The notes below the pieces were generated by a model. The model worked only from the letters and a program-made list of their open reading frames with translations, was not told the origin of the DNA and made no database searches. Positions 8,082-25,456 of a stretch of DNA of 64,000 nt are shown here, one piece after another. A program made the translations under genes and the position numbers. Origin of the DNA: Burkholderiales bacterium (GTDB taxonomy: Bacteria > Pseudomonadota > Gammaproteobacteria > Burkholderiales > Ga0077523). The DNA lies in the NCBI GenBank assembly GCA_019745565.1, contig JAIESW010000024.1, positions 129 to 64,128 of the forward strand. The letters are read 5' to 3'. Within the stretch, counting starts at the first letter, position 1; each line of letters begins with the position of its first letter.

Positions 8082-9011
8082 CTACGCTCGAACCCCCATC
8101 CGCCGCTCCTTCGCCCGCACCAGCGCTGTGATCGTCGTATTCGCCGGCGTCGCAATTCCCAGTTCCCCACCGACCCGCACGATCGCCCCGTTGATCGCAT
8201 CGATCTCCGAGATTCGTCCGGCCATGTGATCCAGCAGCACCGACGGCCGCGCATTGGGAATCTTCGAACCGAAATCGCGCACGTAGCTTTCCGCGTCGGT
8301 GATATCCAGCTTCACACCCTTGGCCTTCCCCACCGCGAAGGCTTCGCGTGCGCAGTTCGCCGCTACGTTCCACGCATCGGGATCGTTCATCACTTCGCCG
8401 ATGGTGCGGTCCATGATGGAGCACGGCCCCGAGTAGGTGACGTTGCAGATCAGCTTCTCCCACACGAGCTGATCGATGTCGTCGAAGCACTTCACCTTGA
8501 ACCCGCCGGAACGCCAGACCTCCGCCACTGCTTCGAGCCGGGGCGTGACCGGCCCGGCGAATTCGCCTAGCCGCACGAGCTCCATCCCGTTGTGGTGCGC
8601 ATGCCCCGGCCCTTTCATGGAAGCGCCAAACCCGCCCACCACACCCACCAGTACGCGTTCGCGGCCGAGGATGCGCGCGCTGATGTCCGGTCCGCCCAAG
8701 CCATTCTGGATCGACAGCACCACCGTCTGCGGGCCGATCAATGCGCGCGCCGCTGTCGCGGCAGGCTCCACGTGCATGATCTTGGTGGCGATGATGACGA
8801 GGTCACTCGTGCCGACATCCGCCGCATCGGTGGTGGCCCGGATACGCACGATCCGGTCGCCGGAGATGCCTTCGAGCCGCAGACCGTGGGCGCGGATCGC
8901 ATCGATGTGATCGCGCCACGCATCGACGGCCCACACTTCGTGTCCGGCGCTCGCCAGCAGGCCCGCGTATACGCAGCCCATAGCCCCGCAGCCGACGATC
9001 GCGATTTTCAA
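8082..9011 (-). CDS. 2-dehydropantoate 2-reductase (ketopantoate reductase/ApbA) family oxidoreductase
   Basis: N-terminal KIAIVGCGAMGCVYAGLL Rossmann fold, about 309 aa. TTG start overlaps the upstream stop (TTGA). The track ORF to 9947 is an artefactual extension. Confidence 0.75.
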   Translation of the reverse strand: MKIAIVGCGAMGCVYAGLLASAGHEVWAVDAWRDHIDAIRAHGLRLEGISGDRIVRIRATTDAADVGTSDLVIIATKIMHVEPAATAARALIGPQTVVLSIQNGLGGPDISARILGRERVLVGVVGGFGASMKGPGHAHHNGMELVRLGEFAGPVTPRLEAVAEVWRSGGFKVKCFDDIDQLVWEKLICNVTYSGPCSIMDRTIGEVMNDPDAWNVAANCAREAFAVGKAKGVKLDITDAESYVRDFGSKIPNARPSVLLDHMAGRISEIDAINGAIVRVGGELGIATPANTTITALVRAKERRMGVRA

Positions 9012-9994
9012 GCGATTCTCTTCTCGAGGCTCGACGGGTTCACCACCCGGATCGGCTTGCCGTCGAGAAACGCGAGTACGTTCTCGATGGACTCGCCGTA
9101 GAACTGCTCGTACACCTCGCGGGTGCAGTAGCCCAGGTGCGGCGTCAGCACCACGTTGGGCAGCGTGCGCAGCGGATGCTCCTCGGGCAGCGGTTCCTGG
9201 TCGAAGACGTCCAGTGCTGCGATCAGGCGGCCTCGCCTCAGGTGATCCAGCAGCGCCTTCTCGTCGACGAGAGGTCCGCGCGACGTGTTGACGAGGATGG
9301 CGTGCGGCTTCATCCGATCGAGCTCCGTCGGCCCCACCACACCCCGCGTCCGGTCGGACAGGACCAGGTGCAGCGAGATCGCGTCGGCTTCGCCGAACAG
9401 CGTGGCCTTGTCCACGAGACGGGCATCGCACGCCACGGCCCGCTCGGCCGTCAGGTTCTGGCTCCACGCCATGACGTCCATGCCCAGAGCGTGACCGACA
9501 CGCGCGACGCGCGATCCGATCTTGCCCAGGCCGACGACCCCGAGCTTGCGGCCGGCGAGCATGGTGCCCAGCGGAACCTGATCCTGGAACCGCCCCGAGC
9601 GCAGCGCACGATCGGCTGCGGGAACGTGCCGCGCGGCGGCGAACAGCAATGCCAGCGCGATCTCGGCGGTGGTCGCGTTCGAGTGGTCGCTGCCGGTATT
9701 GCACACGACGATGCCGCGGGCCGTGCACGCGTCGAAGTCGAGCGTGCCCGAGCGCACACCGGTGAGGGCGATCATGCGCAGCCGCGGCAGGCGCGCGATC
9801 AGTCCCGCCGAGAACACGGTGCGCTCGCGCATCGCCACGACGATGTCGAAATTGACCAGGACACGGGCCGCCGCGTCCTGATCGGCGAAGGGCTCGGTGA
9901 GGATGACCACTTCCGCCCGACGCTCGAGGGCGGACCAGTCGGCGCACACGCGAGCGATGTTCTGCCAGTCGTCGAGGACGGCGATGCGGGTCAT
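9008..9994 (-). CDS. D-isomer-specific 2-hydroxyacid dehydrogenase family protein
   Basis: NAD site GVVGLGKIGSRVARVGHALGMDV and catalytic-region motifs (…NTSRGPLVDE…, …TPHLGY…). Start trimmed to MTRIAVLDDW. Confidence 0.8.
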   Translation of the reverse strand: MTRIAVLDDWQNIARVCADWSALERRAEVVILTEPFADQDAAARVLVNFDIVVAMRERTVFSAGLIARLPRLRMIALTGVRSGTLDFDACTARGIVVCNTGSDHSNATTAEIALALLFAAARHVPAADRALRSGRFQDQVPLGTMLAGRKLGVVGLGKIGSRVARVGHALGMDVMAWSQNLTAERAVACDARLVDKATLFGEADAISLHLVLSDRTRGVVGPTELDRMKPHAILVNTSRGPLVDEKALLDHLRRGRLIAALDVFDQEPLPEEHPLRTLPNVVLTPHLGYCTREVYEQFYGESIENVLAFLDGKPIRVVNPSSLEKRIA

Positions 9995-10101
9995 GGCATC
10001 GGGAAGTTCCGAATGAACGAGAACCGGATACTCCAGCATCCGCCGACGCGTGTCGACGGATGCCAACGTACTCTACGATGTCAGCTGCGCTGCGGTCGGT
10101 A

Positions 10102-10965
10102 TCAACCCCGGCCTTCGCGCACGAGCCGGAAATCGTAGACGGCTTCGCTGAACGGCCGCTCCGAGGACTGCCCGTCCGGAGTCCGGCCGGCCGGCAGATC
10201 GCGGAATTCGACGACCAGCGAATCCTTCACCCCGAACACGGCGTCCGATTCGAGGTACTTGTCCCCCTTGACGAACAGGTGCGTGATGATGGGTTCGTAC
10301 CCCGGCGCCGACACCTTCGTGTGGACGTGCGCAGGCCGATACGGATGCCGCCCCATGCCGAGCAGCATCTTGCCTACCGGGCCGTCGGTCGGGATCGGGT
10401 AGCTCACCGGCTTGGTGGTGCGAAAGCCGAAGCGGCCCTGTGCATCCGTGGTGAACTTGCCGCGGGCGTACGAGGCGCCGGGACGCTGCACGTCGTAGAA
10501 GCCTTCGGAATCGTTTTGCCACACGTCCAGTTCGGCGCCCTCGATCGGCTTGCCGTCCACGTCGAGCACGCGTCCATGCACGTACGCCGGCATACCCGGC
10601 AGACCCTCGGCGATGTCGGCCCACATCGGCAGTTGCTTCGAGCCGGCCACGTAGAAGGGCCCGAGCACCGTGGTTTCGGTAGCACCGCCGGGCTTGCGAT
10701 GGTTGATCGCGTCCACCAGCATCGAGACGCCGAGCGTGTCGGACAGCAGGATGTACTCCTGGCGCTTGTCGTCGCACTTCTGTCCGGTCGCGGTGAGGAA
10801 CTGGATGCCCGCGAACCACTCGGCCTCGGTCAGTTCGGTCTCACGCACGAACGCATGCAGATGACGGATGAGGCTCGTCATGATCTGCCGGAAGCGCTCG
10901 TCCGCCTGGCCCTCGATGCGGGCGAGGACGGCGTCGGTCAATGTCTGTTCCAGCGAACTGCCCAT
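10102..10965 (-). CDS. hydroxyquinol (1,2,4-benzenetriol) 1,2-dioxygenase, intradiol family
   Basis: 287 aa. Intradiol dioxygenase core (…LGPFY…, …RPAHVHTKV…) with the hydroxyquinol-type N-terminal domain. Clustered with maleylacetate reductase. Confidence 0.8.
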   Translation of the reverse strand: MGSSLEQTLTDAVLARIEGQADERFRQIMTSLIRHLHAFVRETELTEAEWFAGIQFLTATGQKCDDKRQEYILLSDTLGVSMLVDAINHRKPGGATETTVLGPFYVAGSKQLPMWADIAEGLPGMPAYVHGRVLDVDGKPIEGAELDVWQNDSEGFYDVQRPGASYARGKFTTDAQGRFGFRTTKPVSYPIPTDGPVGKMLLGMGRHPYRPAHVHTKVSAPGYEPIITHLFVKGDKYLESDAVFGVKDSLVVEFRDLPAGRTPDGQSSERPFSEAVYDFRLVREGRG

Positions 10966-10996
10966 GGCGGGTCTCCGGGAAAGGGTGAGAGCGACT

Positions 10997-11377
10997 CTAC
11001 TTCAACGATTCGAGGTAGCGGATCAGCTTCGCGCGGACCCGCTCCTCGTCCTGGAAGTAGACCATCTGTGCCTTCGGGGCCACGGCGAGCGTGTCGGTGA
11101 GCCACTGGTCGAGCAGTTCCACGGTCCACGTCTTGCCCTTCAGCGCTTCCTTGATGCCGTCGGAGAACACGAATCCGTCCACGGCTGCGGCGGGGCGGCC
11201 GATCAACCCGAACAGGTTCGGACCCTGCCCGTGCTTCTCGCCCTTCTCGAACGTGTGGCACTGGCTGCACTGGCGGATGACCAGTTCCTTCGCGGCCGCC
11301 AGATCATCGGCGGCGAGCGCGGGCGCACTGCAGAAGGCGGCCGCGATCAGGCCGCCCGTGATGAGGTTCGACTTCAT
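10997..11377 (-). CDS. monohaem class I c-type cytochrome (periplasmic)
   Basis: 126 aa. Signal peptide MKSNLITGGLIAAAFCSAPALA, haem motif CSQCH, distal Met (AQMVYF). The track ORF to 12745 is an artefact. Confidence 0.85.
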   Translation of the reverse strand: MKSNLITGGLIAAAFCSAPALAADDLAAAKELVIRQCSQCHTFEKGEKHGQGPNLFGLIGRPAAAVDGFVFSDGIKEALKGKTWTVELLDQWLTDTLAVAPKAQMVYFQDEERVRAKLIRYLESLK

Positions 11378-11442
11378 GACGTTTCTCTCCACATCCTGAT
11401 GGGGTGAAGGGACCGGCCGGGTCCGGCCGGTCCCGATCGACA

Positions 11443-13173
11443 TCAACCGCGCACCGGTTCCTTGTTCGCGGCATTGGCGGCGCGATACGCGAAGCCGATG
11501 ATCGGCCCGAGCGTGCCGCCGCCGGCCCAGTAGGCACGGCCGGACGCCGACGCGACGCAGTTGCCGACGCCGTACAGGCCGGGGATCGGCTTGTCCTCGA
11601 TGTCGAGCACCTGCCCCTCCGGATTGGTCTTCGGCCCGCCCTTGGTGTCGAGCGTGCCGCCGGTCACGAAGGCCGCGTAGTACGGCCCCTTGTCGCTGAG
11701 GGGCCACATGGTGGGGTTCTTCCGGTTCGGCTCCTCCTTCACGTTGCCGTTGAACAGCAGATCCACGCCGCGCTCGCCGCGATGGAAGTCGAGATCCTTG
11801 CCGTTGGCGGCGAACTCGTTGAAGCGCTTGATGGTGGCCTTGAGGTTCTGCACATAGTCGGCGGAGATGCGCATGCCGCCGTTGTGGCTCGCGTACTTCT
11901 GCAGACGTGCATCGATGTTCGCCGCCAGCTCCTCGAGTGTCGCGCCCTTGATGACGTGACGGTCGTCGGAGCCCGGCGGCACGATCAGGCGGCCGTACTC
12001 GTGACTCGCGGAATGGTCCTGGGCGCGCTGATCCCAGATGGAGGTGAGGATGAGATAGGGGAACTGGGCGTTGGCCCCGTCCCACTCGAAGAACTTCTGC
12101 GCGAGCTCGTTGTAGTGCAGCTTCTCGTTCACCACGCGCTTGCCGTTCTTGTCGACGAAGATCATCGAGTCGCCGGCCACCGAGAAGCAGCCGATCATCG
12201 ACGGATCCTTGGCGATCGCCTTCTCGAACGAGATGGGACACATCCAGGCGTAGTTCATGTTGCGCAGCTGCACGCCGAGCGTGCTGGAGATGCGGATGAA
12301 GTCGCCCTCGTTCGTCATGGCCGCGCAGCCGCCGTAGGCCGGGATGGACAGGAAGTTCTTGCGCAGCTCGGGATCGTGGGTGAAGCCGCCGGTGGCGAAG
12401 ATCACGGCCTTGCGCGCCTTCACGCGCAGCACGCCGTCGTCGTTCTTCACCTCTACGCCGATCACTTCGCGCTTGTCGTTGAGAATGACCTTCTGCACCC
12501 GATGGCTGGTGCGCACCGTGACCCCGTCGCGGCGGCACGCCGTGGACAGCGTGCGCGTCGCCACCTGACCGCCGTCGGACATCGAGGGTGCTCCGTCTTT
12601 GGGGAACAGCACGCGCCCGGTGGCACCGATAGTCTCCATCTCCGCGAAGTAGTCCGGCACCGGGGCCACGTGGCGGTAGGGCAGCGCGCCCTTCTCGGAC
12701 AGCAGCTCGGTGCCTACCGAAGAGCTGTCGTAGATCGCCTCGCACATGGCGTACTCCCAGTCGGAAAGACCGAGCTTGGGAGCGTTCGGATCGAAGCTCT
12801 GGGGCTGGGACAGCCGTGCGACGTAGCGGAGGAAGTGCTCCTTGGAGTCGGGGATGCCCGCCTTCTGCATCGCGGCATTGTTCGGGACCCAGTACCAGTA
12901 TGCGGCCTTGAACGACGTGCCGCCCAGCGTCGCGGCCTTCTCGTACACCGCGACCTTGTTCCCGAGCCAGCGCGAGAACAGCGCCACCGGCAGTCCTGCA
13001 CCGCCGCCGCCGCAGACGACGATGTCGAACTCCTGATCGAAGGTCGCGGCCAGCGCTTCCTTCGCACTCAGCGTAACCGTGCCGAACGTGGCTGCCGCAG
13101 TCCCCGCGGTCGCCGCCTTCAGAAAACCGCGTCTTGCCTTGTCTGCCTGCTGCTCGATCTCCTTGCCGGACAT
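11443..13173 (-). CDS. Tat-exported FAD-dependent oxidoreductase (FAD_binding_2 / flavocytochrome-c flavin-subunit / KstD-like family)
   Basis: Twin-arginine signal KARRGFLKAATAGTAAATFG and dinucleotide fold DIVVCGGGGAGL. 576 aa. C-terminal GLYGVGNC typical of the succinate dehydrogenase/fumarate reductase flavoprotein superfamily. Confidence 0.8.
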   Translation of the reverse strand: MSGKEIEQQADKARRGFLKAATAGTAAATFGTVTLSAKEALAATFDQEFDIVVCGGGGAGLPVALFSRWLGNKVAVYEKAATLGGTSFKAAYWYWVPNNAAMQKAGIPDSKEHFLRYVARLSQPQSFDPNAPKLGLSDWEYAMCEAIYDSSSVGTELLSEKGALPYRHVAPVPDYFAEMETIGATGRVLFPKDGAPSMSDGGQVATRTLSTACRRDGVTVRTSHRVQKVILNDKREVIGVEVKNDDGVLRVKARKAVIFATGGFTHDPELRKNFLSIPAYGGCAAMTNEGDFIRISSTLGVQLRNMNYAWMCPISFEKAIAKDPSMIGCFSVAGDSMIFVDKNGKRVVNEKLHYNELAQKFFEWDGANAQFPYLILTSIWDQRAQDHSASHEYGRLIVPPGSDDRHVIKGATLEELAANIDARLQKYASHNGGMRISADYVQNLKATIKRFNEFAANGKDLDFHRGERGVDLLFNGNVKEEPNRKNPTMWPLSDKGPYYAAFVTGGTLDTKGGPKTNPEGQVLDIEDKPIPGLYGVGNCVASASGRAYWAGGGTLGPIIGFAYRAANAANKEPVRG

Positions 13174-13267: not shown

Positions 13268-14470
13268 TCAAACGCGCTCCAGCACCGCCGCGATGCCCTG
13301 GCCGACGCCGATGCACATGGTCGTCAGCGCATAGCGCAGCTTGCGGTGCTGCAGTTCGTGGGTGGCGGTCGCGACCAGGCGTGCGCCGCTCATGCCGAGC
13401 GGGTGGCCCAGGGCGATGGCCCCGCCGTTGGGATTCACGCGCGGGTCGTCATCCGCGATGCCGAGTTGCCGCAGCACCGCGAGACCCTGTGCCGCGAAGG
13501 CTTCGTTCAACTCGATCACGTCGAGCTGTTCCTGCTTGAGCCCGAGGCGCGCGAACAGCTTCTGCGAGGCCGGCACCGGCCCGATGCCCATGATGCGCGG
13601 TGCGCAGCCGGCGGTGGCGACGCCGACCACGCGAGCGAGCGGTGTGAGGCCGTGCTTCTTCGCCGCGGCCTCGCTGGCGAGGATCAGGGCGCAGGCGCCG
13701 TCGTTTACACCCGAGGCGTTGCCTGCGGTCACGGTGCCGTCCGGTTTCACGATCGGCTTCAGCTTCGCGAGTGCTTCCATGGAGGTTTCGCGCGGGTGCT
13801 CGTCCTGGCTCACGACCACCGGATCACCCTTCTTCGCCGGGATGGTCACCGGCACGATCTCCTGCGCCAGCCGGCCGTTCTTCTGGGCGGCGGACGCGCG
13901 GGCCTGGGAACGCAATCCGAACGCATCCTGGTCGGCGCGCGATACCCCGAAGTCGGCCGCGACGTTCTCCGCGGTTTCGGGCATCGAATCGACCCCGTAC
14001 ATCTGCTTCATCGTCGGATTGACGAAACGCCAGCCGATGGTGGTGTCGTACACCGCGGTGGTGCGCGAGAAGGCGTTGTCCGCCTTCGGCATGACGAAGG
14101 GGGCGCGCGACATGCTCTCGACGCCGCCGGCGATGATCAGCTCGGCTTCGCCTGCCTTGATCGCGCGTGCAGCGATACCTACCGCATCCATGCCCGACCC
14201 GCACAAGCGATTGATGGTGCTGGCCGGAATCTCCTTCGGCAGTCCGGCCAGCAGCAGCGCCATGCGCGCCACATTGCGGTTGTCCTCGCCGGCTTGGTTG
14301 GCGCACCCGAACACCACATCGTCCACGGCGCTCCAGTCGACGTTGCCGTAGCGCTCCATCAACGCCTTGAGCGGAACCGCACCGAGGTCATCCGGGCGCA
14401 CCGACGAGAGCGAGCCGCCGTAACGGCCGATGGGGGTGCGCACTGCAGCGCAGATGAAGGCTTCCGGCAT
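13268..14470 (-). CDS. pcaF: 3-oxoadipyl-CoA thiolase / acetyl-CoA C-acyltransferase
   Basis: 400 aa. Thiolase motifs (…[12 protein letters not shown]…, C-terminal …CIGVGQGIA…) and a PcaF/PaaJ-like N-terminus [19 protein letters not shown]. Sits in the 3-oxoadipate gene context. Confidence 0.8.
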
Positions 14471-14473: not shown

Positions 14474-15496
14474 TCAGTCCTTGGGTGGTTCACGCAGCAC
14501 CAGGCGGCGCTGCACGGGGAAGAAATGGAGGTCGAAGCGGTGGGATACGTAGCCCCACAGCCCGCGCGGAAAGCGGATCGTGACGACGATGGCGAGCAGG
14601 CCCAAGCCCACGAGGTACCAGGTGCCGTACTCGGAGAAATACTTGTTGAGCAGCCAGAACAGCACGACGCCGACGATGGGCCCCTCGATCGTGCCGATGC
14701 CGCCGATCATCACGATGAAGATGGTGAAGGCGGTCCAGTTCACGGTGAACGCCGCGTCCGGCGAGATGCGCAGGTTGCCGAGGAAGTAGAGCGCGCCCGC
14801 GAGCCCGGCGCCGAAGGCGGCAACCACGTACACGCCGAGCTTCGTCGCGCGCACGTTGACCCCCTGGCTTTCGGAGGCGATCTCGCTGTCGCGGATGGCG
14901 AGCAGCGCGAGGCCCTGGCGCGAACGCAGGAACCAGTAGACCAGGGCCACCGACGCCACCGCCGAGATGAGACACAACCAGAACGTGACCGACACGCGCG
15001 TGGCCTTTTCGATACCACGCAGCGCCGTGAGGCTGGTGCCGGAACCGCCGCCCACCGCGGAGACGTTGGCGATGGACAGGCGGAACACCTCCGCGATCAC
15101 CCAGGTGCCGATGGCGAAGTAGCCGCCCTGCAGCCGGAAGGCGATCTTCGAGACCGGAATGGCCACCAACATCGTGAGCACCGCCGCGATCGGTACCGCG
15201 ACGAACGGATTCACGCCCATGAAGTTGCCCATCACCACCAGTGCGTAGCCGCCGAGGCCCAGAAACGCCTGCTGGCCGATGGACACCATGCCGCCGTAGC
15301 CGGCCAAGAGGTTCCACATCATGGCGAAGATGAGATAGCAGGCCATCTCGTTGAACTCGCGCATCCAGCCGTGATCGGCCCACCAGGGAAAGGTGGCGAG
15401 GAAGACGACGAACACCGCGGCCAACGCACCGCCCGTGCGGCTCGCACGCGTGGCGCGCGAGACCTCGAAGGCGATGGCGGGTGCGTTCGTGGTCAT
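14474..15496 (-). CDS. HAAT ABC transporter permease, LivM-like (second system)
   Basis: Starts MTTNAPAIAF. The ATG overlaps the upstream stop (ATGA). Multi-TM, with NLLAGYGGMVSIGQQAFLGLGGYA. Confidence 0.88.
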   Translation of the reverse strand: MTTNAPAIAFEVSRATRASRTGGALAAVFVVFLATFPWWADHGWMREFNEMACYLIFAMMWNLLAGYGGMVSIGQQAFLGLGGYALVVMGNFMGVNPFVAVPIAAVLTMLVAIPVSKIAFRLQGGYFAIGTWVIAEVFRLSIANVSAVGGGSGTSLTALRGIEKATRVSVTFWLCLISAVASVALVYWFLRSRQGLALLAIRDSEIASESQGVNVRATKLGVYVVAAFGAGLAGALYFLGNLRISPDAAFTVNWTAFTIFIVMIGGIGTIEGPIVGVVLFWLLNKYFSEYGTWYLVGLGLLAIVVTIRFPRGLWGYVSHRFDLHFFPVQRRLVLREPPKD

Positions 15497-16371: not shown

Positions 16372-16529
16372 GCGAGGACCTTGTTACCTATGCCGCGCGA
16401 GACACATCCCAAAGGAAAGCGCTCAACGCGGCGGAATGCCAAGGCGAAAGCCTCGTGCTTGGGCCAACGGTGGCTGGTCTCGCAGTGCGGGGGTTCCGCC
16501 GCGTTCTGTGTCTTCAGCTTGTCCATGGC

Positions 16530-18057: not shown

Positions 18058-19338
18058 TTACATCAGCTTCATCTTCCCGCCTGCCGGAATGGCCGGTGCC
18101 TGGGAGTTGTTGACGATCACAAGGTCGTACTTGTTCTTCGTCCCCTTGACCCACTGCCCCAGCACGAGCGGCGTCTTGCTCACGTTCTTGAACGGGCCCC
18201 CGCCGCCCCACTTCACGTCGCCGACTACGGTCTTCAGGTTGGTCGCGGCGACTGCGTCGCGCAGCGACGCGGCATCACCGGGATCCTTGGCGCGCTTCAA
18301 TGCGTCCACGGCTACCTCGAACAGCGCGTGCGCGAACCCGATCGGCTGGGTCCACTGCTTCTTGGTCGCGCCTTCATAGGAATCGGCGAGTGCCTTCGCA
18401 CTTTGCTTCGTGAGCGAAGAGGTGAACGGATGCGACGGTGACCACCATACTTCCGTGGTGAGTCCGTCGCCGAGATCGCCGAGTGCCTCGATGGCGGCGG
18501 GGAACAGCAGCGCCTTGCCGAGCGTCACCACCTTGGGCTTGAAGCCCTGCTGCTTCGCCTGGGTGAGGAAGGTCTTCGCATCCGGCGGGATCACGACGCC
18601 TGTGACGATCTCGACGTTGTCCTTCTTGAACGCCGCGATCTGCGCGGAGAAGTCGTTGTTCATGTTCTGGAAGCGGCCCGGGTCGGTGAGGCTGTAGCCC
18701 TCCTTCGACAGCGGTCCGGGGAAGCCGCGCTCCTTGTCGCCCCACGCGTTGCCGTCGCCGTCGTTGGGGAACAGGCCGCCCACTTTCTTGTTGGTCGGCA
18801 CCGAGTTCCAGCCGGCGAGGAAGTTGGCGATGACGTCCTCGAGACCCCAGAAGATGTGATAGGTCCAGGTGAAGCCCTTGGCCGGATCGCCCTTGCGGCC
18901 GAAGAACCACGGCTGCCACGGCACGACGGTGGAGATGCACGGGATCTCGTTCAGTTCGCACGCGTCCGACACCGGGTTCGCGGTTTCGGGCGTGGACGAG
19001 ACCAGCATCAGGTGGACCTTGTCCTTGAGGATGAGGTCGTTCGCCACTTCGCCGGCGCGGTTCGGGTTGGACTGGCTGTCCTTCTGGATGATCCTGACCG
19101 GTACCCTCTTGCCGCCGAGATCGAGGCCGCCGCCGAACAGCTTGTTCATCTGTTCGATCGTGAACTTGTCGGCTTCGCCGAAGGGTGCGAGCGGGCCGGT
19201 CTGCGGCGACACGAAGCCGATCTTGATCTCCTTCACGTCCGCGAACACGAGGTTCGGCATGCCGAGTGCTGCGGCGCCGGCGGCGATCCCGCCGGCCTGG
19301 ATCAGCGCGCGACGGCGCTGGAAGCTTGGGTTGCTCAT
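18058..19338 (-). CDS. HAAT-family periplasmic substrate-binding protein with twin-arginine-like signal
   Basis: Starts MSNPSFQRRRALIQAGGIAAGAAALGMPNLVFA. LivK-like fold length (about 426 aa). First gene of the transporter block. Confidence 0.85.
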   Translation of the reverse strand: MSNPSFQRRRALIQAGGIAAGAAALGMPNLVFADVKEIKIGFVSPQTGPLAPFGEADKFTIEQMNKLFGGGLDLGGKRVPVRIIQKDSQSNPNRAGEVANDLILKDKVHLMLVSSTPETANPVSDACELNEIPCISTVVPWQPWFFGRKGDPAKGFTWTYHIFWGLEDVIANFLAGWNSVPTNKKVGGLFPNDGDGNAWGDKERGFPGPLSKEGYSLTDPGRFQNMNNDFSAQIAAFKKDNVEIVTGVVIPPDAKTFLTQAKQQGFKPKVVTLGKALLFPAAIEALGDLGDGLTTEVWWSPSHPFTSSLTKQSAKALADSYEGATKKQWTQPIGFAHALFEVAVDALKRAKDPGDAASLRDAVAATNLKTVVGDVKWGGGGPFKNVSKTPLVLGQWVKGTKNKYDLVIVNNSQAPAIPAGGKMKLM

Positions 19339-19407: not shown

Positions 19408-20469
19408 TCAGTTCGGACGCTTGCCCTCCCAGGCGTCTTGCAGCAGCTGGCGGATGGCGCCGCGTTCGATCGGGCGCGGATTCCAGTAAACGTTGGTGGT
19501 GGCGAGCTCGGCGGCGCGGTCCAGACCGTCCGCGGGCATGCCGATGTCCTTGAGCGCCGTCGGTGCACCGAGGCGTTGCGCCAGATCGAAGACGCCGCGG
19601 GCCGCGCTCGACTCGTTGCCCATTGCCGCGACGATCCGTGTCATCGCTTCCGAGGCAGCGGGCGCGTTGTAGGCGAGCGCGTGCGGCAGCACGATGGTGT
19701 GGGTTTCGGCATGGGGCAGATTGAAAGTGCCACCCAGCGTGTGACACAGCTTGTGGTGCAGCGACATGCCGACCGACCCCAACACGGCGCCGCACAGCCA
19801 GGCGCCGTACAGGCAGTGGCTGCGAGCATCGCTATCGCCTGGCGACGCGACGACCCGTGGCAGACCCGTCGCGAGCGCGCGGATGCCTTCCTCAGCGAGC
19901 AGCGAGTGGATCGGGTCCGCATCCTGCGCATAGAGACCTTCGGCGGCGTGGGCGATCGCGTTGATGCCGCTCGTCACGGACAGACCCACCGGGAGTCCGA
20001 GGGTGAGATTCGGGTCGTAGATCACCGTCTGCGGCAGCACACGCGGATCGCGCCCGGTCTTCTTGACCCCGCCTTCGGTGATGCCCCAGATCGGCGTCAT
20101 CTCCGAGCCGGCATAGGTGGTGGGAATGGCGAGAATCGGCAGCGTCGATTCCAGCGCGATCGCCTTGCCCAGGCCCGTGGTGGAGCCGCCGCCGATGGCG
20201 ACGGCGCAATCGGCGCCGACTTTCGTGGCTTCCGCGCGCGCGGCGCGGGCGGTCTCGATCGGCACGTGCATCACGGCGCGGTCGAACACGCCGGCGCAGC
20301 GGGTGCCGAGGCGCTCCGCGATCATCTCCGCGGACACGCGTTGCTCGGGCGTGGAAAGCACCAGCGCGCGCTTGGCACCGAGCAGATCCACCTCGCGCTC
20401 GAGTTGCTGCAGGCAGCCGGCACCGAACACGACGCGCGGGATGCGCGCCTGGAAGACGAAGGGGCTCAC
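19408..20469 (-). CDS. maleylacetate reductase (iron-containing alcohol dehydrogenase family)
   Basis: About 353 aa. Motifs AIGGGSTTGLGKAIA and HKLCHTLGGTFNLPHAETH. GTG start overlaps the pcaJ stop (GTGA). Confidence 0.85.
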   Translation of the reverse strand: MSPFVFQARIPRVVFGAGCLQQLEREVDLLGAKRALVLSTPEQRVSAEMIAERLGTRCAGVFDRAVMHVPIETARAARAEATKVGADCAVAIGGGSTTGLGKAIALESTLPILAIPTTYAGSEMTPIWGITEGGVKKTGRDPRVLPQTVIYDPNLTLGLPVGLSVTSGINAIAHAAEGLYAQDADPIHSLLAEEGIRALATGLPRVVASPGDSDARSHCLYGAWLCGAVLGSVGMSLHHKLCHTLGGTFNLPHAETHTIVLPHALAYNAPAASEAMTRIVAAMGNESSAARGVFDLAQRLGAPTALKDIGMPADGLDRAAELATTNVYWNPRPIERGAIRQLLQDAWEGKRPN

Positions 20470-21122
20470 GCAGGCAGCGCTTCGGAAGCGTGCAGCAGCG
20501 GCACGCCCGTCAGGCGTTGCAATTCGTCGAACGGGAGGCCGTCGACGCACTCCACCACCTTCAGCCCTTGAGGCGTGACGTCGATCACCGCGAGGTCGGT
20601 GTAGATGCGATTGACGCAGCCGATGCCGGTCAGCGGATAGGTGCAGCGCTCGACGATCTTGCTCTCGCCGCTCTTGGTCTGGTGCTCCATCATCACGTAG
20701 ACCTGCTTCGCGCCGATGGCGAGGTCCATCGCGCCGCCGACCGCGGGAATGGCGTCGGGGCCGCCCGTGTGCCAGTTGGCGAGATCGCCGGTCACCGATA
20801 CCTGGAACGCGCCGAGCACGCAGACGTCCAGATGGCCGCCGCGCATCATCGCGAACGAGTCGCCGTGGTGGAAATAGCAGCCGCCGGTGAGCAGCGTGAC
20901 CGGCTGCTTGCCGGCGTTGATGAGATCCGGGTCCTCCTCGCCTTCGGCCGGCGCGGGGCCCATGCCGAGCAGACCGTTTTCGCTGTGCAGGAAGATCTCG
21001 CGATCCTTCGGGAGGTGGTTGGCCACCAGCGTCGGCAGGCCGATGCCGAGATTCACGTAGGCACCTTCGCGGATGTCGCGCGCGACGCGGGCGGCGATCT
21101 GATCACGAGTGAGTCGCTTCAT
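20466..21122 (-). CDS. pcaJ: 3-oxoadipate CoA-transferase subunit B
   Basis: 218 aa. MKRLTRDQIAARVARDI… and SENGLLGMGP with the catalytic Glu motif of family I CoA-transferase beta subunits. Confidence 0.88.
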   Translation of the reverse strand: MKRLTRDQIAARVARDIREGAYVNLGIGLPTLVANHLPKDREIFLHSENGLLGMGPAPAEGEEDPDLINAGKQPVTLLTGGCYFHHGDSFAMMRGGHLDVCVLGAFQVSVTGDLANWHTGGPDAIPAVGGAMDLAIGAKQVYVMMEHQTKSGESKIVERCTYPLTGIGCVNRIYTDLAVIDVTPQGLKVVECVDGLPFDELQRLTGVPLLHASEALPA

Positions 21123-21147
21123 GTCGTTGCTCCTTCTCCGCGGGAAG

Positions 21148-21837
21148 TCACGCGACAGCGCGGGCGCCGGACGGCGCGGCCACCTGCACGACCCGTTGCA
21201 CGAAGATGCCGGGCGTGATCACGGTTTCGGGATCGAGTGCGCCGAGCGGTACCACTTCCGATACCTGCGCGATGGCGCACTTCGCCGCGCTGGCCATGAT
21301 CGGACCGAAGTTGCGCGCGGTCTTGCGATACACGAGGTTGCCCCAGCGATCGCCCTTCAGTGCCTTGATCAGTGCGAAGTCCGCGTGGATCGGGTACTCA
21401 AGCACGTAGGGACGCCCATCGATGATGCGGGTCTCCTTGCCTTCGGCGAGTTGCGTGCCGTAGCCCGTCGGCGTGAAGAACGCGCCGATGCCCGCACCGG
21501 CCGCGCGAATGCGCTCCGCGAGATTGCCCTGCGGTACCAGTTCGAGCTCGATGTCGCCGGCGCGGTAAAGCCCGTCGAAGACCTGCGAGTCCACCTGACG
21601 CGGGAACGAACAGATGATCTTGCGCACCCGGCGCGCCTTGAGCAGTGCCGCGAGGCCGACCTCGCCGTTGCCGGCGTTGTTGTTGACGATGGTGAGGTCC
21701 TTGGCGCCCTGCACGATGAGTGCGTCGATCAGCTCGGCAGGCTGCCCCGCGGCACCGAAGCCGCCGATCATGACGGTGGCGCCGTCGAAGACATCGGCGA
21801 CGGCGGCGTCGAGGGATGGGACGGTTTTGTCGATCAT
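21148..21837 (-). CDS. pcaI: 3-oxoadipate CoA-transferase subunit A
   Basis: Starts MIDKTVPSLDAAVADVFDGATVMIGGFG, the typical alpha-subunit N-terminus. The track ORF extends into a REP element. Confidence 0.88.
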   Translation of the reverse strand: MIDKTVPSLDAAVADVFDGATVMIGGFGAAGQPAELIDALIVQGAKDLTIVNNNAGNGEVGLAALLKARRVRKIICSFPRQVDSQVFDGLYRAGDIELELVPQGNLAERIRAAGAGIGAFFTPTGYGTQLAEGKETRIIDGRPYVLEYPIHADFALIKALKGDRWGNLVYRKTARNFGPIMASAAKCAIAQVSEVVPLGALDPETVITPGIFVQRVVQVAAPSGARAVA

Positions 21838-21964: not shown

Positions 21965-21979
21965 AGGCGATATCAGGCG

Positions 21980-23449
21980 TCATCGCGGGTAGTAAGGCGG
22001 AATCTGCGCATCCACATTCACCCAGACGCTCTTCGCCTGGGTGTACTCCCGCATCACTTCGAACCCCATCTCCCGCCCGTATCCGGAACTCCCGGTCCCG
22101 CCGAACGGTGACGCAGGGTTCACCCGCTTGTAGCAGTTGATCCACACCATCCCGCTTTTCATCTCTCTCGCGAACTTGTGCGCACGCTGCAGGTTCGTCG
22201 TCCACAACCCGCCGCCCAGCCCATACTCGGTGCCGTTCGCGATGGCCAGCGCTTCCTCGTCGGTCTTGAACGTCGTGACGGTCACGAACGGCCCGAACAC
22301 TTCCTCCTGCGACACGCGATCGGTCGGCTTCGCGCGCACGATGGTCGGTTCGACGTAGCAGCCTTTCGACAGCTCGGCGCGCGCGGGCGGCTTGCCGCCG
22401 AGCAGCACCTGCCCGCCCTGCTCCTGCGCCACCTGTACGTATGACAGCACGCGATCGCGATGCCCGGTCGACGTGAGCGGACCCATCTCGGTGCCCGGCT
22501 CCACCGGATTGCCGAGCTTGATGGACTTCGCCAGCCCGATGAACTTCTCCAGGAACTCATCGGCGATTTTCTCGTGCAGCACCAGGCGCGAGCCGGCGAT
22601 GCAAGCCTGGCCCTGGTTGTGGAAGATCGCGAAGGCGGCACCGCCGACCGCAGCAGGAATGAACGCATCCTCGAACACGATGTTCGCACCCTTGCCGCCC
22701 AACTCGAGTTGCACCTTCTTCAGGTTGCCGGCCGAGGCCTGCACGATGCGCCTACCCACGGCAGTGGAGCCGGTGAACGCGATCTTGGCGATCTCGGGAT
22801 GCTCGGCGATGTATTGGCCCGCGACTTGACCGAGTCCCGGCACGATGTTGACCACGCCCTCGGGAAAGCCCACTTCCGCCATCAGCTGCGCGATCTTGAG
22901 ACTGGACAGCGGCGTGAGCTCCGCCGGCTTCATCACCACGCAGTTGCCGGCCGCGAGCGCCGGAGCCATCTTCCAGCTCGTGAACATGAGCGGAAAATTC
23001 CACGGCACCACCTGCCCCACCACGCCGAGCGGCTCGCGCAGCATGTAGTTGAGGAAGCCCGCTTCCACCGGAATCACGGAACCTTCCAGCTTGTCGGCCA
23101 TGCCGCCGAAATAGCGGAACGTCACCGCGGTCCGCGGCACGTCGAGGCCGCGGGTATCGCGCAGCGGGTGGCCGGTGTCGAGCGATTCGAGCAGCGCCAG
23201 TTCCTCGGCCTTCTCCTCGATCCTGTCGGCGAGCTTGAGGATGAGCCGGCCGCGATCCATCGCCGCCATGCGGCTCCACTTCGGGAATGCGGCTTTGGCG
23301 GCGGCGACGGCCTTGTCGATGTCGGCCTTGCCCGCCATGGCGACTTCGGCGAGCGTGCTGTTGTCGTGCGGGTTGACCGTCGCGAGCGTCGCACCGTCCT
23401 CGGCGGGAACGAACTTGCCGGCGATGAAGAGCTTGTCCTGGATTTCCAT
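21980..23449 (-). CDS. NAD(P)-dependent aldehyde dehydrogenase, probable 4-hydroxymuconic semialdehyde dehydrogenase
   Basis: 489 aa from MEIQDKLFIAGKFV. ALDH motifs ELGGKG and catalytic Cys region NQGQACIAGSR. Position between the hydroquinone dioxygenase genes and the maleylacetate-processing genes. Confidence 0.8.
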   Translation of the reverse strand: MEIQDKLFIAGKFVPAEDGATLATVNPHDNSTLAEVAMAGKADIDKAVAAAKAAFPKWSRMAAMDRGRLILKLADRIEEKAEELALLESLDTGHPLRDTRGLDVPRTAVTFRYFGGMADKLEGSVIPVEAGFLNYMLREPLGVVGQVVPWNFPLMFTSWKMAPALAAGNCVVMKPAELTPLSSLKIAQLMAEVGFPEGVVNIVPGLGQVAGQYIAEHPEIAKIAFTGSTAVGRRIVQASAGNLKKVQLELGGKGANIVFEDAFIPAAVGGAAFAIFHNQGQACIAGSRLVLHEKIADEFLEKFIGLAKSIKLGNPVEPGTEMGPLTSTGHRDRVLSYVQVAQEQGGQVLLGGKPPARAELSKGCYVEPTIVRAKPTDRVSQEEVFGPFVTVTTFKTDEEALAIANGTEYGLGGGLWTTNLQRAHKFAREMKSGMVWINCYKRVNPASPFGGTGSSGYGREMGFEVMREYTQAKSVWVNVDAQIPPYYPR

Positions 23450-23456
23450 GGTTCGT

Positions 23457-23855
23457 TCAGTCCGCGATGCGCACGCGGCCGTCCTCGATCGTGAGCGGCA
23501 CCGCCAACAGAGAGTCACCCTCGCAGGGACCATCCTCGCAGTAGCCATCTTCGAAGCGGAACGTCGCGCAGTGCACCGAGCAATAGAGGTAGCTGTGCTC
23601 GAACAGCGTGAAGCGATCGGGGGCCACGTTGAGCGGGACGCCGAAGTGCGGGCACTTGTTGAGATAACCCCACACCGCGTCGCCGGAACGCAGCACCACC
23701 AGCCGGAACGTGTCGTGCCCTTCGCCGAAGTTGAACTCGCGCGCGCCGCCGTCCGGCACGTGCTCGAGTGCGCACAACACCGTGCCCGCCGCCGGCGCGA
23801 AGGGGCGCTCGGTCCAGTGCGGCACGGGGTTCGGCAGTTCCATCGGGGCGTTCAT
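23457..23855 (-). CDS. small Rieske [2Fe-2S] domain protein
   Basis: 132 aa. Cluster ligands CPH(F) …21 aa… CSVH. No oxygenase catalytic domain. Confidence 0.8.
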   Translation of the reverse strand: MNAPMELPNPVPHWTERPFAPAAGTVLCALEHVPDGGAREFNFGEGHDTFRLVVLRSGDAVWGYLNKCPHFGVPLNVAPDRFTLFEHSYLYCSVHCATFRFEDGYCEDGPCEGDSLLAVPLTIEDGRVRIAD

Positions 23856-23923
23856 GGGGTGAGGGAGGGCGTCCGGACCGCTCGAAGCCGTGCGGTCCGT
23901 TCCTCCTGAGCTTGCGCGGTCGC

Positions 23924-24946
23924 CTAGAACTCGACCGGGTAGGGCTTGAGCTTCCCGCTCTCGTAGAGCTGGGGCAGGTCCATCCGCGCGTTCTCCCACA
24001 CCAGCAGCATCGAACGCTTGGTGGCGAAGCCCTGGTGACGGATGTCGGCCGGCATCGCGGCGACGTCGCCGGCTTTCATCAGCACGCGCGCGCGCGGCTT
24101 GCCGGTTTCCTTGTCCGAGACGTCCCACTCGATCTCGTCGGAGAGCTGGATGAACCACTCCACGCGATCGTTGCCGTGGATGATCGGCAGGATGTACTCC
24201 TCGGTGGTCGGACAGTACAGCGATTCGCGGCACACCGAAGTGACCGACGGATTCCACGTGACGTCGGACCGGCTGAGGTACTTGAACAGGTTGAAGCCGT
24301 GCAGCTTGCCTTCGAAGCCGGGCTCGACTTCGATCACCGGTTCGTCCTGAGCCACGTCGGCGAAGGCGCGATTCACCGGGAGATCATCGCGCAGCGGCGA
24401 ATCCCCCGGCAGGCCGGGCATGCGCTTGGTCGCGACGCGCGAGCGCTCGATCGCTTCGAGGTTGTCCCCGCTCTTGGTACCGGCCCACGTCTTGCCGGTC
24501 TCCTCCGGTGCGGCGAACGGATCGAAGCCGGCGTTGCACCAGTCCTTCAGGATCGCCTTGCAGGTCGCCATGGCGATCGGCGAGTCGAACTCCTCGACGT
24601 AGGAAAGACCGGCCTGGTGGTACGCCGGGTTGTAGCGACCGGCGAAGAACTCCACGCGGCCGTACAGGTTGCGGCTGCCGAACATGCCGTCGAAGTTGAC
24701 GAGGCCGTAGAAGAAGCCCCATGCGACGTCGCGCATCAGCGCGCGCAGGAAGGCATCGGCGGACATGCGATGCTGCATCGGCCCCTGCTTCGTGGGCCAG
24801 GTGACGGTGACGAAGTACTCGTCGCGCTGGAAATGGAACTTGCCCAGATCGAACTGGCGGAAGCCGGTCTTCGCATCGGGCTCGCTCGCCTGGACGGCGG
24901 GCTGCGGACGGGCGGCAGGTTTTGCAGCGGTTTCGAGCATGGCCAT
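23924..24946 (-). CDS. hydroquinone 1,2-dioxygenase large subunit (HapD/PnpD-type), putative
   Basis: 340 aa (about 38 kDa), directly after a 164-aa partner. Sizes and gene order match the two-subunit Fe(II) hydroquinone dioxygenases, followed by ALDH and maleylacetate reductase. Identity is recalled, not searched. Confidence 0.65.
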   Translation of the reverse strand: MAMLETAAKPAARPQPAVQASEPDAKTGFRQFDLGKFHFQRDEYFVTVTWPTKQGPMQHRMSADAFLRALMRDVAWGFFYGLVNFDGMFGSRNLYGRVEFFAGRYNPAYHQAGLSYVEEFDSPIAMATCKAILKDWCNAGFDPFAAPEETGKTWAGTKSGDNLEAIERSRVATKRMPGLPGDSPLRDDLPVNRAFADVAQDEPVIEVEPGFEGKLHGFNLFKYLSRSDVTWNPSVTSVCRESLYCPTTEEYILPIIHGNDRVEWFIQLSDEIEWDVSDKETGKPRARVLMKAGDVAAMPADIRHQGFATKRSMLLVWENARMDLPQLYESGKLKPYPVEF

Positions 24947-24961
24947 GGTTGATTGCTCCGA

Positions 24962-25456
24962 TCAGTGCGCGCAGATCTCGGCCCACTTCTGGACCGTGAG
25001 ATCGCCGGCGATGGTCTGCTGGATCATCACCGACGGCCTGGCCGCGGTGAACTGGTAGGCGGCACCCTTGGGCAGCAATGCCTGATGGCCGCGTTTGAGA
25101 TGAATGCGGCCCATCTTGCGACCCGACGGCGCACCGGACAGCTTCACGGTGCCGTCCTTGCCGGCGGGCACTGAAGCATCCGCGAGTTCCACGAAGGACA
25201 CGGTGACCTCGCCGTCCAGCACGACCACGAACTCGTCATGACCGGCCGTGAACCAGTCGGAGGTTCCTTCGGCGCGAATGGTCTCGATCACGTACTCGAA
25301 GTTCTTCGCGACCGCGACCTTCTCCCACGGCTTCGACTTCGAGGCGACCTCGAACACGTTCGAATAGCAGTAGTACTTCGGGTTGTCGTTGATGATGCTC
25401 AACTTCCCCTTCTCGAACTGCTTCAGGGACCCGAAGACGGTGGTGTATTGCGACAT
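24962..25456 (-). CDS. hydroquinone 1,2-dioxygenase small subunit (HapC/PnpC-type), putative
   Basis: 164 aa from MSQYTTVFGSLKQFEKGK. First gene after the divergent IclR promoter region. Track ORF trimmed. Confidence 0.6.
   Translation of the reverse strand: MSQYTTVFGSLKQFEKGKLSIINDNPKYYCYSNVFEVASKSKPWEKVAVAKNFEYVIETIRAEGTSDWFTAGHDEFVVVLDGEVTVSFVELADASVPAGKDGTVKLSGAPSGRKMGRIHLKRGHQALLPKGAAYQFTAARPSVMIQQTIAGDLTVQKWAEICAH

Follow-up and report, generated by a model that had tools for sequence, protein, structure and literature searches.

The 64,000-nucleotide stretch of contig JAIESW010000024.1 from a Burkholderiales bacterium (assembly GCA_019745565.1), hereafter called the window, carries on its minus strand, from position 25456 down to 8082, a block of genes for the degradation of hydroquinone. 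A preliminary description regarded this block as an apparently complete route from hydroquinone or hydroxyquinol to succinyl-CoA and acetyl-CoA that lacks any recognisable hydroquinone-generating enzyme, and proposed its unassigned members as candidates for a new upper pathway. The question raised by this locus is from what its hydroquinone is made, if it is made by the block at all. The results described below suggest that the block is a conserved hydroquinone uptake-and-catabolism operon, into which the genes for a thiolase, a flavoprotein of the cyclohexanone dehydrogenase (CDH) family and a c-type cytochrome have been inserted. On balance, we incline to the reading that the flavoprotein is a periplasmic aromatising desaturase that makes hydroquinone from a para-oxygenated cyclohexanone, for subsequent import and degradation.

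Two sets of loci were compared with the window. In the first, centred on hydroquinone 1,2-dioxygenase (HQDO), the large subunit of this enzyme was searched against metagenome contigs and the 80 closest loci were analysed with 10-kb flanks. In the second, centred on CDH, the flavoprotein was searched against one genome per species, giving 80 loci (48 of them full-length). Neighbours were judged within 10 kb and tabulated by tblastn of the window proteins against these 80 loci.

Enzymes for hydroquinone and hydroxyquinol cleavage

The 340-aa protein is 67.4% identical to PnpD over residues 1-340 (chain 4zxa_W, E=2e-160). It also matches chain 5m21_B (E=2e-128) and contains the N-terminal domain of PnpD (PF18191, E=1.8e-60). 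The 164-aa protein matches 5m21_A (E=1.7e-54) and 4zxa_A (E=6e-54), and is 55.6% identical to HqdA. The gene for the small subunit is located directly upstream of that for the large subunit, with a gap of 15 nt. Alignment indicates that the HGNDRVE and DIRHQG stretches of the large subunit are the same as those of PnpD; these stretches of the cupin presumably hold the iron ligands. The two proteins had been assigned only putatively to the two-subunit PnpCD/HapCD type. The similarities to PnpD (E=2e-160) and to PnpC/HqdA (E of about 1e-54) bear this assignment out, and the pair is, as judged by homology, a genuine two-subunit hydroquinone dioxygenase.

The small Rieske protein encoded next to the HQDO genes has homologues in at least 19 of the 80 HQDO-centred loci, indicating that it is a conserved accessory of HQDO clusters, and is 51% identical to the Rieske gene product of the Caballeronia sp. 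NK8 operon described below. It may hold the oxygen-sensitive Fe(II) centre of HQDO in the reduced state, much as ferredoxin reactivates extradiol dioxygenases, a process that is discussed for HQDO together with the inactivation of this enzyme in PMC3222310. A literature search on pnpX genes and on the function of Rieske proteins in pnp clusters found nothing. Orthologues of the aldehyde dehydrogenase (ALDH), with 69-85% identity, are encoded directly after HQDO in 51 of the 80 HQDO-centred loci. This enzyme is assigned as 4-hydroxymuconic semialdehyde dehydrogenase, with its substrate taken from synteny, because no family-specific model exists.

PcaI, PcaJ, PcaF and the PcaR-family regulator all exceed the curated NCBIfam cut-offs, and the maleylacetate reductase (MAR) matches the solved maleylacetate reductases 3jzd (E=4e-158), 3hl0 (E=1.5e-124) and 3w5s (E=3.5e-122). 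The intradiol enzyme matches the hydroxyquinol dioxygenases 3n9t (PnpC, E=2.5e-92), 8r2x (E=5.5e-86) and 1tmx (E=1.3e-81), whereas its best match to a catechol 1,2-dioxygenase is much weaker (about 5e-37). Thus homology identifies the enzymes of this core module, and every step from hydroquinone or hydroxyquinol to succinyl-CoA and acetyl-CoA has an enzyme supported by sequence, as had been expected if the assignments hold. HQDO, with its Rieske partner, would convert hydroquinone to 4-hydroxymuconic semialdehyde, which ALDH would oxidise to maleylacetate. MAR would reduce maleylacetate to 3-oxoadipate, and PcaIJ and PcaF would then yield succinyl-CoA and acetyl-CoA. The product formed from 1,2,4-benzenetriol (hydroxyquinol) by hydroxyquinol 1,2-dioxygenase would join this pathway at the maleylacetate step.

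A flavoprotein of the cyclohexanone dehydrogenase family

The flavoprotein has the FAD_binding_2 fold (PF00890, E=1.5e-50) and a twin-arginine translocation (Tat) signal, in which the SRRxFLK motif is represented by an RRGFLK stretch. It matches PDB entries 8AM3, 8AM6 and 8AM8 with E=3e-262, and is 66.6% identical to the CDH of Alicycliphilus denitrificans K601. The K601 enzyme is the only characterised member of its class; it converts cyclohexanone to 2-cyclohexenone, and also takes 3-methylcyclohexanone and, weakly, 4,4-dimethylcyclohexanone (PMC10966990). Its catalytic residues are Tyr195, Tyr376, Tyr570 and Gly574, its gate is formed by Trp113, Tyr415 and Phe496, its Cys305 is bonded to the flavin by the 8-methyl group of FAD, and its pocket is 'little bigger than' the cyclohexanone substrate (PMC10966990). 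Y195, Y376, Y570, G574, W113, Y415, F496 and C305 are all kept in the window flavoprotein and are invariant in 74 aligned homologues. By these similarities the window protein is a member of the CDH family, and we propose that it acts as an aromatising alpha,beta-desaturase. Because it is a homologue of a characterised CDH, the proposal of an upper pathway becomes specific.

The flavoprotein also gives sub-threshold matches to the NCBIfam models of the 4-oxocyclohexanecarboxylate desaturases ChcC1/ChcC2 (NF053676 as the second-best and NF053677 as the ninth-best match), at a score far under the family cut-off (232 bits vs 1000). Two other functions were rejected. A benzoquinone reductase or hydroquinone oxidase is at odds with the full conservation of the C-H-abstracting catalytic set, and hydroquinone oxidation would oppose HQDO. 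Interconversion of 3-oxoadipate and maleylacetate is disfavoured, since the enzyme is located in the periplasm and the reaction would run counter to catabolism.

The gene that follows encodes a small protein with a signal peptide and a single CSQCH haem motif. Its matches to the Pfam cytochrome c families are weak and fall under the gathering cut-offs, and its match to the NCBIfam cytochrome c-550 model is also weak. This cytochrome is proposed to be the electron acceptor of the flavoprotein.

CDH genes in hydroquinone operons of other bacteria

The closest homologues of the flavoprotein (96%, 95% and 92% identity) are encoded by metagenome-assembled genomes of uncultured Burkholderiales. These genomes keep the block consisting of the genes for hydroxyquinol dioxygenase, cytochrome c, CDH, PcaF, LivMHFG, the binding protein, MAR, PcaJI and ALDH. 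Homologues with 61-68% identity are found in Alphaproteobacteria and Actinomycetota. HQDO, hydroxyquinol dioxygenase or MAR is encoded within 10 kb of CDH in 34 of the 80 loci and in 24 of the 48 full-length ones.

In several lineages the CDH gene is located within the hydroquinone operon itself, and the arrangement differs from locus to locus. The order is HQDO small subunit, HQDO large subunit, CDH, cytochrome c, a protein of the NTF2-like fold and ALDH in Piscinibacter defluvii (L024), and CDH, NTF2-like protein, HQDO small subunit and HQDO large subunit in L050. In two loci of Actinomycetota (L036 and L037), a divergent IclR gene precedes the genes for the HQDO small subunit, HQDO large subunit, CDH, ALDH and CoA-transferase, and MAR comes next in L036. 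CDH is likewise part of HQDO operons, with related layouts, in L039 and in a Pseudoduganella locus (L021). A further example, from a cultured strain, was found by a search of annotated plasmids. Plasmid pNK83 of Caballeronia sp. NK8 (L165; genes NK8_RS37680-37725) carries, next to a divergent AraC gene, the genes for an outer-membrane 'transporter', CDH, cytochrome c, the NTF2-like protein, HQDO small subunit, HQDO large subunit, ALDH, MAR, an intradiol dioxygenase and a Rieske protein. Metagenome locus L137 has the same gene order up to the intradiol (hydroxyquinol) dioxygenase. Apart from the enzymes of ring cleavage, these two compact operons encode no enzymes other than CDH, the cytochrome and the NTF2-like protein, and neither of them encodes a hydroxylase. 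Other cultured carriers of CDH are Piscinibacter defluvii SH-1, Pseudoduganella sp. UC29_106, Labrys sedimenti and Pseudonocardia spp. RefSeq names both HQDO subunits of pNK83 'hydroxyquinol 1,2-dioxygenase' (NZ_AP024327.1, record 16237-17759); by similarity to the window subunits (57% and 68%) the pair is of the PnpC and PnpD type. A plasmid match of 44% identity in Burkholderia sp. JP2-270 (H4), like the still weaker ones, belongs to other subfamilies and was not used.

The partner of CDH varies with the lineage. The CDH homologues of Burkholderiales and Gammaproteobacteria, among them those of the window and of K601, bear a Tat signal. In 26 of the 80 loci the gene after CDH encodes a cytochrome c, and CDH has a Tat signal in every one of these. 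In the family tree, the Tat signal and a cytochrome c encoded by the next gene occur together only in the clade of the window protein and the K601 enzyme. The alphaproteobacterial and actinobacterial homologues have no signal, and their next gene encodes a highly conserved 155-aa SnoaL_2/NTF2-like protein. This protein, which has no signal peptide, follows CDH in 51 loci, even in some with a Tat-exported CDH. Its carriers are L021, L024, most of L026-L080, L137 and L165 (14117-14563). Scytalone dehydratase and ketosteroid isomerase are precedents of the NTF2 fold, and the 155-aa protein, which has no characterised relative, may catalyse the final tautomerisation, as an aromatising tautomerase, or a dehydration. 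It gives no tblastn match in the window, so that the SnoaL_4 protein encoded at 45180-45755 of the window was ruled out as the CDH partner.

A protein of about 310 aa, which carries a signal peptide and ends in an aromatic residue, is encoded directly upstream of CDH genes of the Tat type (L021, 8967-9941; L030, 8995-9912; L137, 5777-6709; L165, 11037-11969; L166, 11001-11933) and is named 'transporter' in RefSeq. It is likely an outer-membrane beta-barrel, which points to a dedicated route for the CDH substrate across the outer membrane. The window contains no protein of this type.

Other neighbours of CDH would fit a different chemistry, in which CDH aromatises unsubstituted or meta-oxygenated rings (cyclohexanone to phenol by way of cyclohexenone, or 1,3-cyclohexanedione to resorcinol) and both dioxygenases receive their hydroquinone or hydroxyquinol from a hydroxylase whose gene lies elsewhere. 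CDH is accompanied by an FAD-dependent aromatic hydroxylase of about 600 aa in Pseudonocardia, Geodermatophilus, Labrys and Methylibium loci; hydroxyquinol dioxygenase and/or MAR join these two in the first three but not in Methylibium. HpaB-type hydroxylases are encoded near CDH in L041 and L076. A second, residual desaturation followed by tautomerisation to phenol has moreover been invoked by the authors of the CDH study to explain one crystal structure (PMC10966990). This chemistry is nevertheless quite improbable for the window, in which no hydroxylase is found among the open reading frames (ORFs) scanned. None is encoded either in the operons of NK8/L137, L024, L036/L037 and L050, in which CDH adjoins HQDO, and para-hydroxylation of phenol is uncommon. 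Several of the Pseudonocardia and Geodermatophilus loci add a carveol-dehydrogenase-like short-chain dehydrogenase/reductase, and a sugar-type ABC transporter and an AraC regulator are recurrent neighbours of CDH in Alphaproteobacteria. A minority of the CDH loci contain no cleavage genes. Among these, L011 has a molybdenum hydroxylase adjoining CDH, as in K601, and the context of CDH in L022 consists of a pyrroloquinoline quinone (PQQ)-dependent alcohol dehydrogenase, an FAH-family hydrolase and an FAD hydroxylase.

Proposed route from a ring ketone to hydroquinone

Aromatisation of a para-oxygenated ring ketone, the reading to which we incline, would proceed as follows. The covalently flavinylated, Tat-exported flavoprotein would remove the alpha and beta hydrogens from a small cyclic ketone in the periplasm, and the electrons would pass through the c-type cytochrome to the respiratory chain. 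The substrate, which is the weakest step, would be a cyclohexanone with oxygen at the para position. A keto tautomer of hydroquinone would result from 1,4-cyclohexanedione after one desaturation, or from 4-hydroxycyclohexanone after two. Upon aromatisation of this tautomer, the hydroquinone would be taken up by the importer and enter the core pathway. The flavoprotein/cytochrome pair would thus constitute the upper pathway, with the two terminal reductases outside it.

This pair is the one credible candidate for an upper pathway, because the chemistry of the family is the alpha,beta-desaturation of small cyclic ketones, and because desaturation of either of these two substrates yields a keto tautomer of hydroquinone. 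In addition, the enzyme is periplasmic and has a cytochrome partner, so that its product would be released within reach of the binding protein, and CDH is placed repeatedly in hydroquinone/hydroxyquinol operons, in different orders and in two phyla. Of the preliminary proposal that the unassigned members form an upper pathway, the part that concerns the flavoprotein and cytochrome c therefore stands, as the best candidate for an upper step, but the importer and the two reductases drop out of it.

Several points weigh against this route. We know of no natural source of 1,4-cyclohexanedione or 4-hydroxycyclohexanone. The characterised CDH serves a non-aromatising anaerobic cyclohexanol pathway, and the homologues in L011 and L022 are found in such contexts. 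Most of the related HQDO clusters do not contain CDH, indicating that the core does not need it. The window has no NTF2/SnoaL-like partner of the kind found in 51 loci, and may be incomplete or work differently. The operon structure is deduced from gene spacing and one consensus promoter match only. Finally, no activity of CDH has been reported on 4-substituted oxygenated cyclohexanones, and the sole para-substituted substrate tested, 4,4-dimethylcyclohexanone, is a poor one (PMC10966990). Nothing relevant was found, within the library searched, that links cyclohexanedione, 4-hydroxycyclohexanone or CDH to hydroquinone catabolism.

The repeated association raises the possibility that the CDH family represents an undescribed but widespread route by which soil bacteria of at least two phyla channel oxygenated cyclohexanones and other alicyclic compounds to the cleavage of hydroquinone or hydroxyquinol, with a periplasmic cytochrome c partner in Beta- and Gammaproteobacteria or a cytoplasmic NTF2/SnoaL-like partner in Alphaproteobacteria and Actinomycetota, and with the anaerobic role in K601 as the exception. 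We regard this generalisation as tentative, with the chances slightly against it. An enzyme family known from a single anaerobic cyclohexanol degrader is in any case wired repeatedly into hydroquinone operons. If the route exists, it would be a second example of a catabolic strategy from alicyclic to aromatic compounds, after that from cyclohexanecarboxylate to 4-hydroxybenzoate, and would provide a physiological context for an enzyme class that is being engineered for selective desaturation.

The importer and the 3.5-kb insertion

Whether an upper pathway is required at all was judged from the HQDO-centred loci. Orthologues of the binding protein (62-82% identity) and the permeases are present in about 30 of these 80 loci, without CDH and without any upstream enzyme. 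The importer thus accompanies HQDO whether or not CDH is present, and for this reason its likeliest role is the uptake of hydroquinone. A search of PDB sequences gave no clue to the ligand of the binding protein, yielding only distant Leu/Ile/Val-binding proteins. As judged from its distribution, the importer is part of the core module and most likely takes up hydroquinone, and perhaps hydroxyquinol too. The suggestion that it is a piece of a new upper pathway is not sustained by these loci. The same loci remove the premise that a hydroquinone-generating enzyme is missing. Such an enzyme is indeed not found. A Pfam scan of the window ORFs, which left out a few short stretches without a convincing ORF, detected no FAD_binding_3/flavin monooxygenase, Baeyer-Villiger monooxygenase or esterase, in agreement with the reported absence of PnpAB and HapAB. 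PnpAB- and HapAB-type enzymes are also not among the recurrent neighbour families of the 80 HQDO-centred loci. This situation is normal for this clade of loci, and an upper pathway is not required.

Comparison of gene orders suggests how CDH came to lie in the block. LivM abuts the hydroxyquinol dioxygenase gene (gap of 387 nt or less, no PcaF between) in at least 10 related loci, in three of which the HQDO large subunit is 83-85% identical to that of the window. On this comparison of sequences, the segment of 3.5 kb that encodes PcaF, CDH and cytochrome c (14470-10997) has been inserted into a conserved operon that is self-contained for the uptake and catabolism of hydroquinone. MAR is encoded in 27 and hydroxyquinol dioxygenase in 18 of the 80 HQDO-centred loci. 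CDH lies within 10 kb of HQDO in two of them (L094 and L137), a count that is a lower bound, because in the layout of the window CDH sits just past the 10-kb flank. LysR regulators, MFS transporters (9 loci), a porin and a YciI-like protein are recurrent neighbours of HQDO that are absent from the window cluster. The YciI-like protein, of 106 aa, is encoded in 12 of the HQDO-centred metagenome loci (L081-L160; e.g. L115, 13819-14139).

These arrangements would also fit a rival explanation, namely that there is no upper pathway, that the cluster merely takes up and degrades hydroquinone and hydroxyquinol set free from plant, humic or quinone sources, and that CDH and cytochrome c are an independent alicyclic-ketone module of the K601 type that happened to be inserted, with 2-cyclohexenone handled by genes elsewhere. 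The importer-containing loci without CDH or any other upstream enzyme, and the direct contact of LivM with the dioxygenase gene, speak for it. Moreover, the window enzyme has the same active site as the K601 enzyme, which is specific for cyclohexanone, and a K601-like molybdenum enzyme adjoins CDH in L011. The recurrence of CDH inside or beside HQDO or hydroxyquinol operons, with varying gene orders across two or more phyla, is however unexpected of a chance insertion. In addition, no molybdopterin-binding protein (molybdenum hydratase/dehydrogenase) and no obvious diketone hydrolase are found among the scanned window ORFs, and the NK8 and L137 operons contain no other non-cleavage enzyme. We consider this explanation unlikely, but the most probable of the alternatives to the aromatisation of a para-oxygenated ring ketone by CDH.

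Hydroquinone catabolism is usually told as the tail end of pathways for xenobiotics such as nitrophenol, hydroxyacetophenone, alkylphenols and paracetamol. The finding that many environmental hydroquinone clusters are stand-alone uptake-and-cleavage modules with their own ABC importer suggests that free hydroquinone is a common soil substrate.

The two terminal reductases

On one version of the preliminary proposal, the importer, the 2-hydroxyacid dehydrogenase, the ketopantoate-reductase-like enzyme and the flavoprotein would together form a new multi-step upper pathway for a para-diphenolic precursor. In its favour, these genes all run in one direction with short gaps, and a TTGA overlap, read directly from the sequence, joins those of the two terminal reductases. 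The ApbA/PanE-like reductase is, however, detected by tblastn in only three of the 80 CDH-centred loci (L001, L002 and L008), and the 2-hydroxyacid dehydrogenase only in L008. The latter is missing from L001 and L002, although their CDH is 95-96% identical to that of the window. Both reductases lack a signal peptide, whereas the flavoprotein is periplasmic, and the importer travels with HQDO and not with CDH. A multi-step pathway of this kind is therefore highly improbable. Confined to the closest relatives, the two reductases are, as judged from this distribution, peripheral and not part of an upper pathway.

Comparison with characterised systems

The core resembles the lower pathways encoded by pnpCDEFG of Pseudomonas sp. 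WBC-3, hapCDEFG of P. fluorescens ACB and hqdAB of Sphingomonas sp. TTNP3 in its two-subunit HQDO (67% and 56% identity to the solved structures), ALDH, MAR and hydroxyquinol 1,2-dioxygenase of the PnpG/PnpC type. It differs from them in that PnpA/PnpB and HapA/HapB are absent, in that PcaIJF, a HAAT importer, a Rieske protein and the CDH-cytochrome c insertion are added, and in that the regulator is of the IclR (PcaR) type, whereas theirs is of the LysR type. The lower pathway is thus already known; what is new is the stand-alone architecture with its importer, and the insertion of CDH.

The window flavoprotein shares with the CDH of K601 (Alide2_4318; PDB 8AM3; EC 1.3.99.14) the Tat signal, the same residues and the same clade, at the identity given above. 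The K601 gene, however, adjoins that of a molybdenum hydratase/dehydrogenase and serves the anaerobic degradation of cyclohexanol via 1,3-cyclohexanedione, with no aromatic intermediate, whereas the window gene is embedded in an aerobic hydroquinone cleavage operon with a cytochrome c gene next to it. ChcC1 and ChcC2 of Sinomonas/Corynebacterium cyclohexanicum aromatise an alicyclic ketone to 4-hydroxybenzoate in the cyclohexanecarboxylate aromatisation pathway. They are likewise KstD-like FAD desaturases, and the logic of conversion of an alicyclic 4-oxo compound to a phenol is the same. They do not belong to the same family, as the score of 232 against 1000 bits indicates, and they are cytoplasmic, act on a carboxylated substrate and give 4-hydroxybenzoate as the product. 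KstD itself has the FAD_binding_2 fold and the mechanism of alpha,beta-desaturation in common with the window enzyme, but the similarity is only distant (E of about 1e-42 to 1e-37), and its pocket is steroid-sized, whereas that of CDH is small.

Gene organization and transcription signals

The window has a G+C content of about 66%, and genes were called from third-position G+C bias, with start codons chosen by inspection. The block consists of 18 co-directional genes with intergenic gaps of 158 nt or less and a 4-nt overlap at four junctions (Table 1). The existence of this co-directional block, and every gene assignment previously made in it, are backed by the sequence. On contig L161 (ENA assembly ERZ17992267) the large subunit is identical and the genes are arranged alike, and an independent gene call on this contig gives 13 product lengths equal to those of the window, from the small subunit through the thiolase. 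A Pfam scan of the L161 gene order assigns two ABC_tran and two BPD_transp_2 domains to the ATPases and permeases of the importer. The exact sequence of the large subunit is present in ENA and Logan assemblies; an exact-sequence look-up gave no record for the CDH and PcaJ proteins.

Table 1. Positions in the window of the genes of the hydroquinone block, of the divergent regulator gene and of the promoter match
Feature	Position	Strand	Evidence
ApbA/PanE (ketopantoate reductase-like) oxidoreductase, TTG start	8082..9011	-	PF02558, PF08546; TIGR00745
D-2-hydroxyacid dehydrogenase family protein	9008..9994	-	PF02826 and PF00389; under every NCBIfam cut-off
Hydroxyquinol (1,2,4-benzenetriol) 1,2-dioxygenase	10102..10965	-	PDB matches
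Periplasmic mono-haem c-type cytochrome	10997..11377	-	Signal peptide and CSQCH haem motif
Tat-exported FAD flavoprotein, CDH family	11443..13173	-	FAD_binding_2, PDB 8AM3
3-Oxoadipyl-CoA thiolase (PcaF)	13268..14470	-	TIGR02430, 713 bits vs 597; PRK09050, 742 vs 605
LivM	14474-15496	-	Pfam on identical gene order in L161
LivH	15493-16371	-	Pfam on identical gene order in L161
LivF	16530-17234	-	Pfam on identical gene order in L161
LivG	17231-17953	-	ABC_tran/BPD_transp_2 Pfam on identical gene order in L161
HAAT-family periplasmic binding protein, RRR signal	18058..19338	-	PF13458
Maleylacetate reductase (MAR)	19408..20469	-	Fe-ADH Pfam domains and PDB matches
3-Oxoadipate CoA-transferase subunit B (PcaJ)	20466..21122	-	TIGR02428, 311 bits vs cut-off 243.55
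3-Oxoadipate CoA-transferase subunit A (PcaI)	21148..21837	-	TIGR02429, 390 bits vs cut-off 128.5
Aldehyde dehydrogenase (PnpE/HapE role)	21980..23449	-	PF00171, E=3e-175
Small Rieske [2Fe-2S] protein	23457..23855	-	PF00355
HQDO large subunit, PnpD/HapD/HqdB type, 340 aa	23924..24946	-	PF18191, PDB 4zxa
HQDO small subunit, PnpC/HapC/HqdA type, 164 aa	24962..25456	-	PDB 5m21_A, 4zxa_A
Sigma-70-like promoter match TTGACA-18-TAGACT	25608..25637	-	Consensus match; divergent intergenic region upstream of the small-subunit gene
Divergent IclR-type regulator, PcaR/PcaU/PobR family	25715..26536	+	TIGR02431, 343 bits vs cut-off 284.75; Pfam IclR_C and HTH_IclR

Many of the related loci carry a gene for an IclR homologue divergent from the HQDO genes, and the block would be transcribed as one long operon, or a few, under the divergent PcaR-type regulator. 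The sigma-70-like match, which faces the IclR gene at 25637-25608, is the sole such match in the block, no more than is expected by chance for the region. No convincing intrinsic terminator is found between the genes on the minus strand of the block. This picture is compatible with one long transcript, which it does not show.

Other genes in the window

A second ABC system of the HAAT type is encoded in the 1-7060 region, with permeases at 306-1382 and 1522-2418 and an ATPase at 2429-3319. The same region encodes a 682-aa AMP-binding acyl-CoA ligase (3423-5471), a Crp-family regulator (5526-6200) and a 3-hydroxybutyryl-CoA dehydrogenase (6209-7060). L001 and L002 have the ligase, the regulator and the dehydrogenase in synteny (91-98% identity), and L008 has the ligase and the dehydrogenase. 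The 3-hydroxybutyryl-CoA dehydrogenase gene is separated from the end of the cluster by a 283-aa ORF with a coding-like G+C bias and no Pfam match (7152-8003, plus strand).

On the other side of the block, a gene whose product has a PHB depolymerase C-terminal domain (40356-41756, plus strand) adjoins a glutathione S-transferase gene (39715-40368, minus strand), and neither is related to the cluster. The stretch at 46955-49469 has a lower G+C content of about 62-63%; the ORF at 48240-48971 within it (minus strand) is unusual in its codon-position composition (GC1 0.39, GC3 0.94), has no Pfam match and may not be a real gene. The plus-strand genes at 53562-60199 encode a PreT/PreA-like dihydropyrimidine dehydrogenase pair (53562-55154 and 54931-56469), an M20 peptidase-family hydrolase (56527-57765) and an amidohydrolase (58547-60199), and look like a cluster for reductive pyrimidine catabolism. 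A PQQ-dependent alcohol dehydrogenase is encoded at 60892-62664 (plus strand) and belongs to a family that is typically periplasmic and cytochrome c-linked. It is 25% identical to the enzyme whose gene abuts CDH in L022, and no link between it and CDH is claimed.

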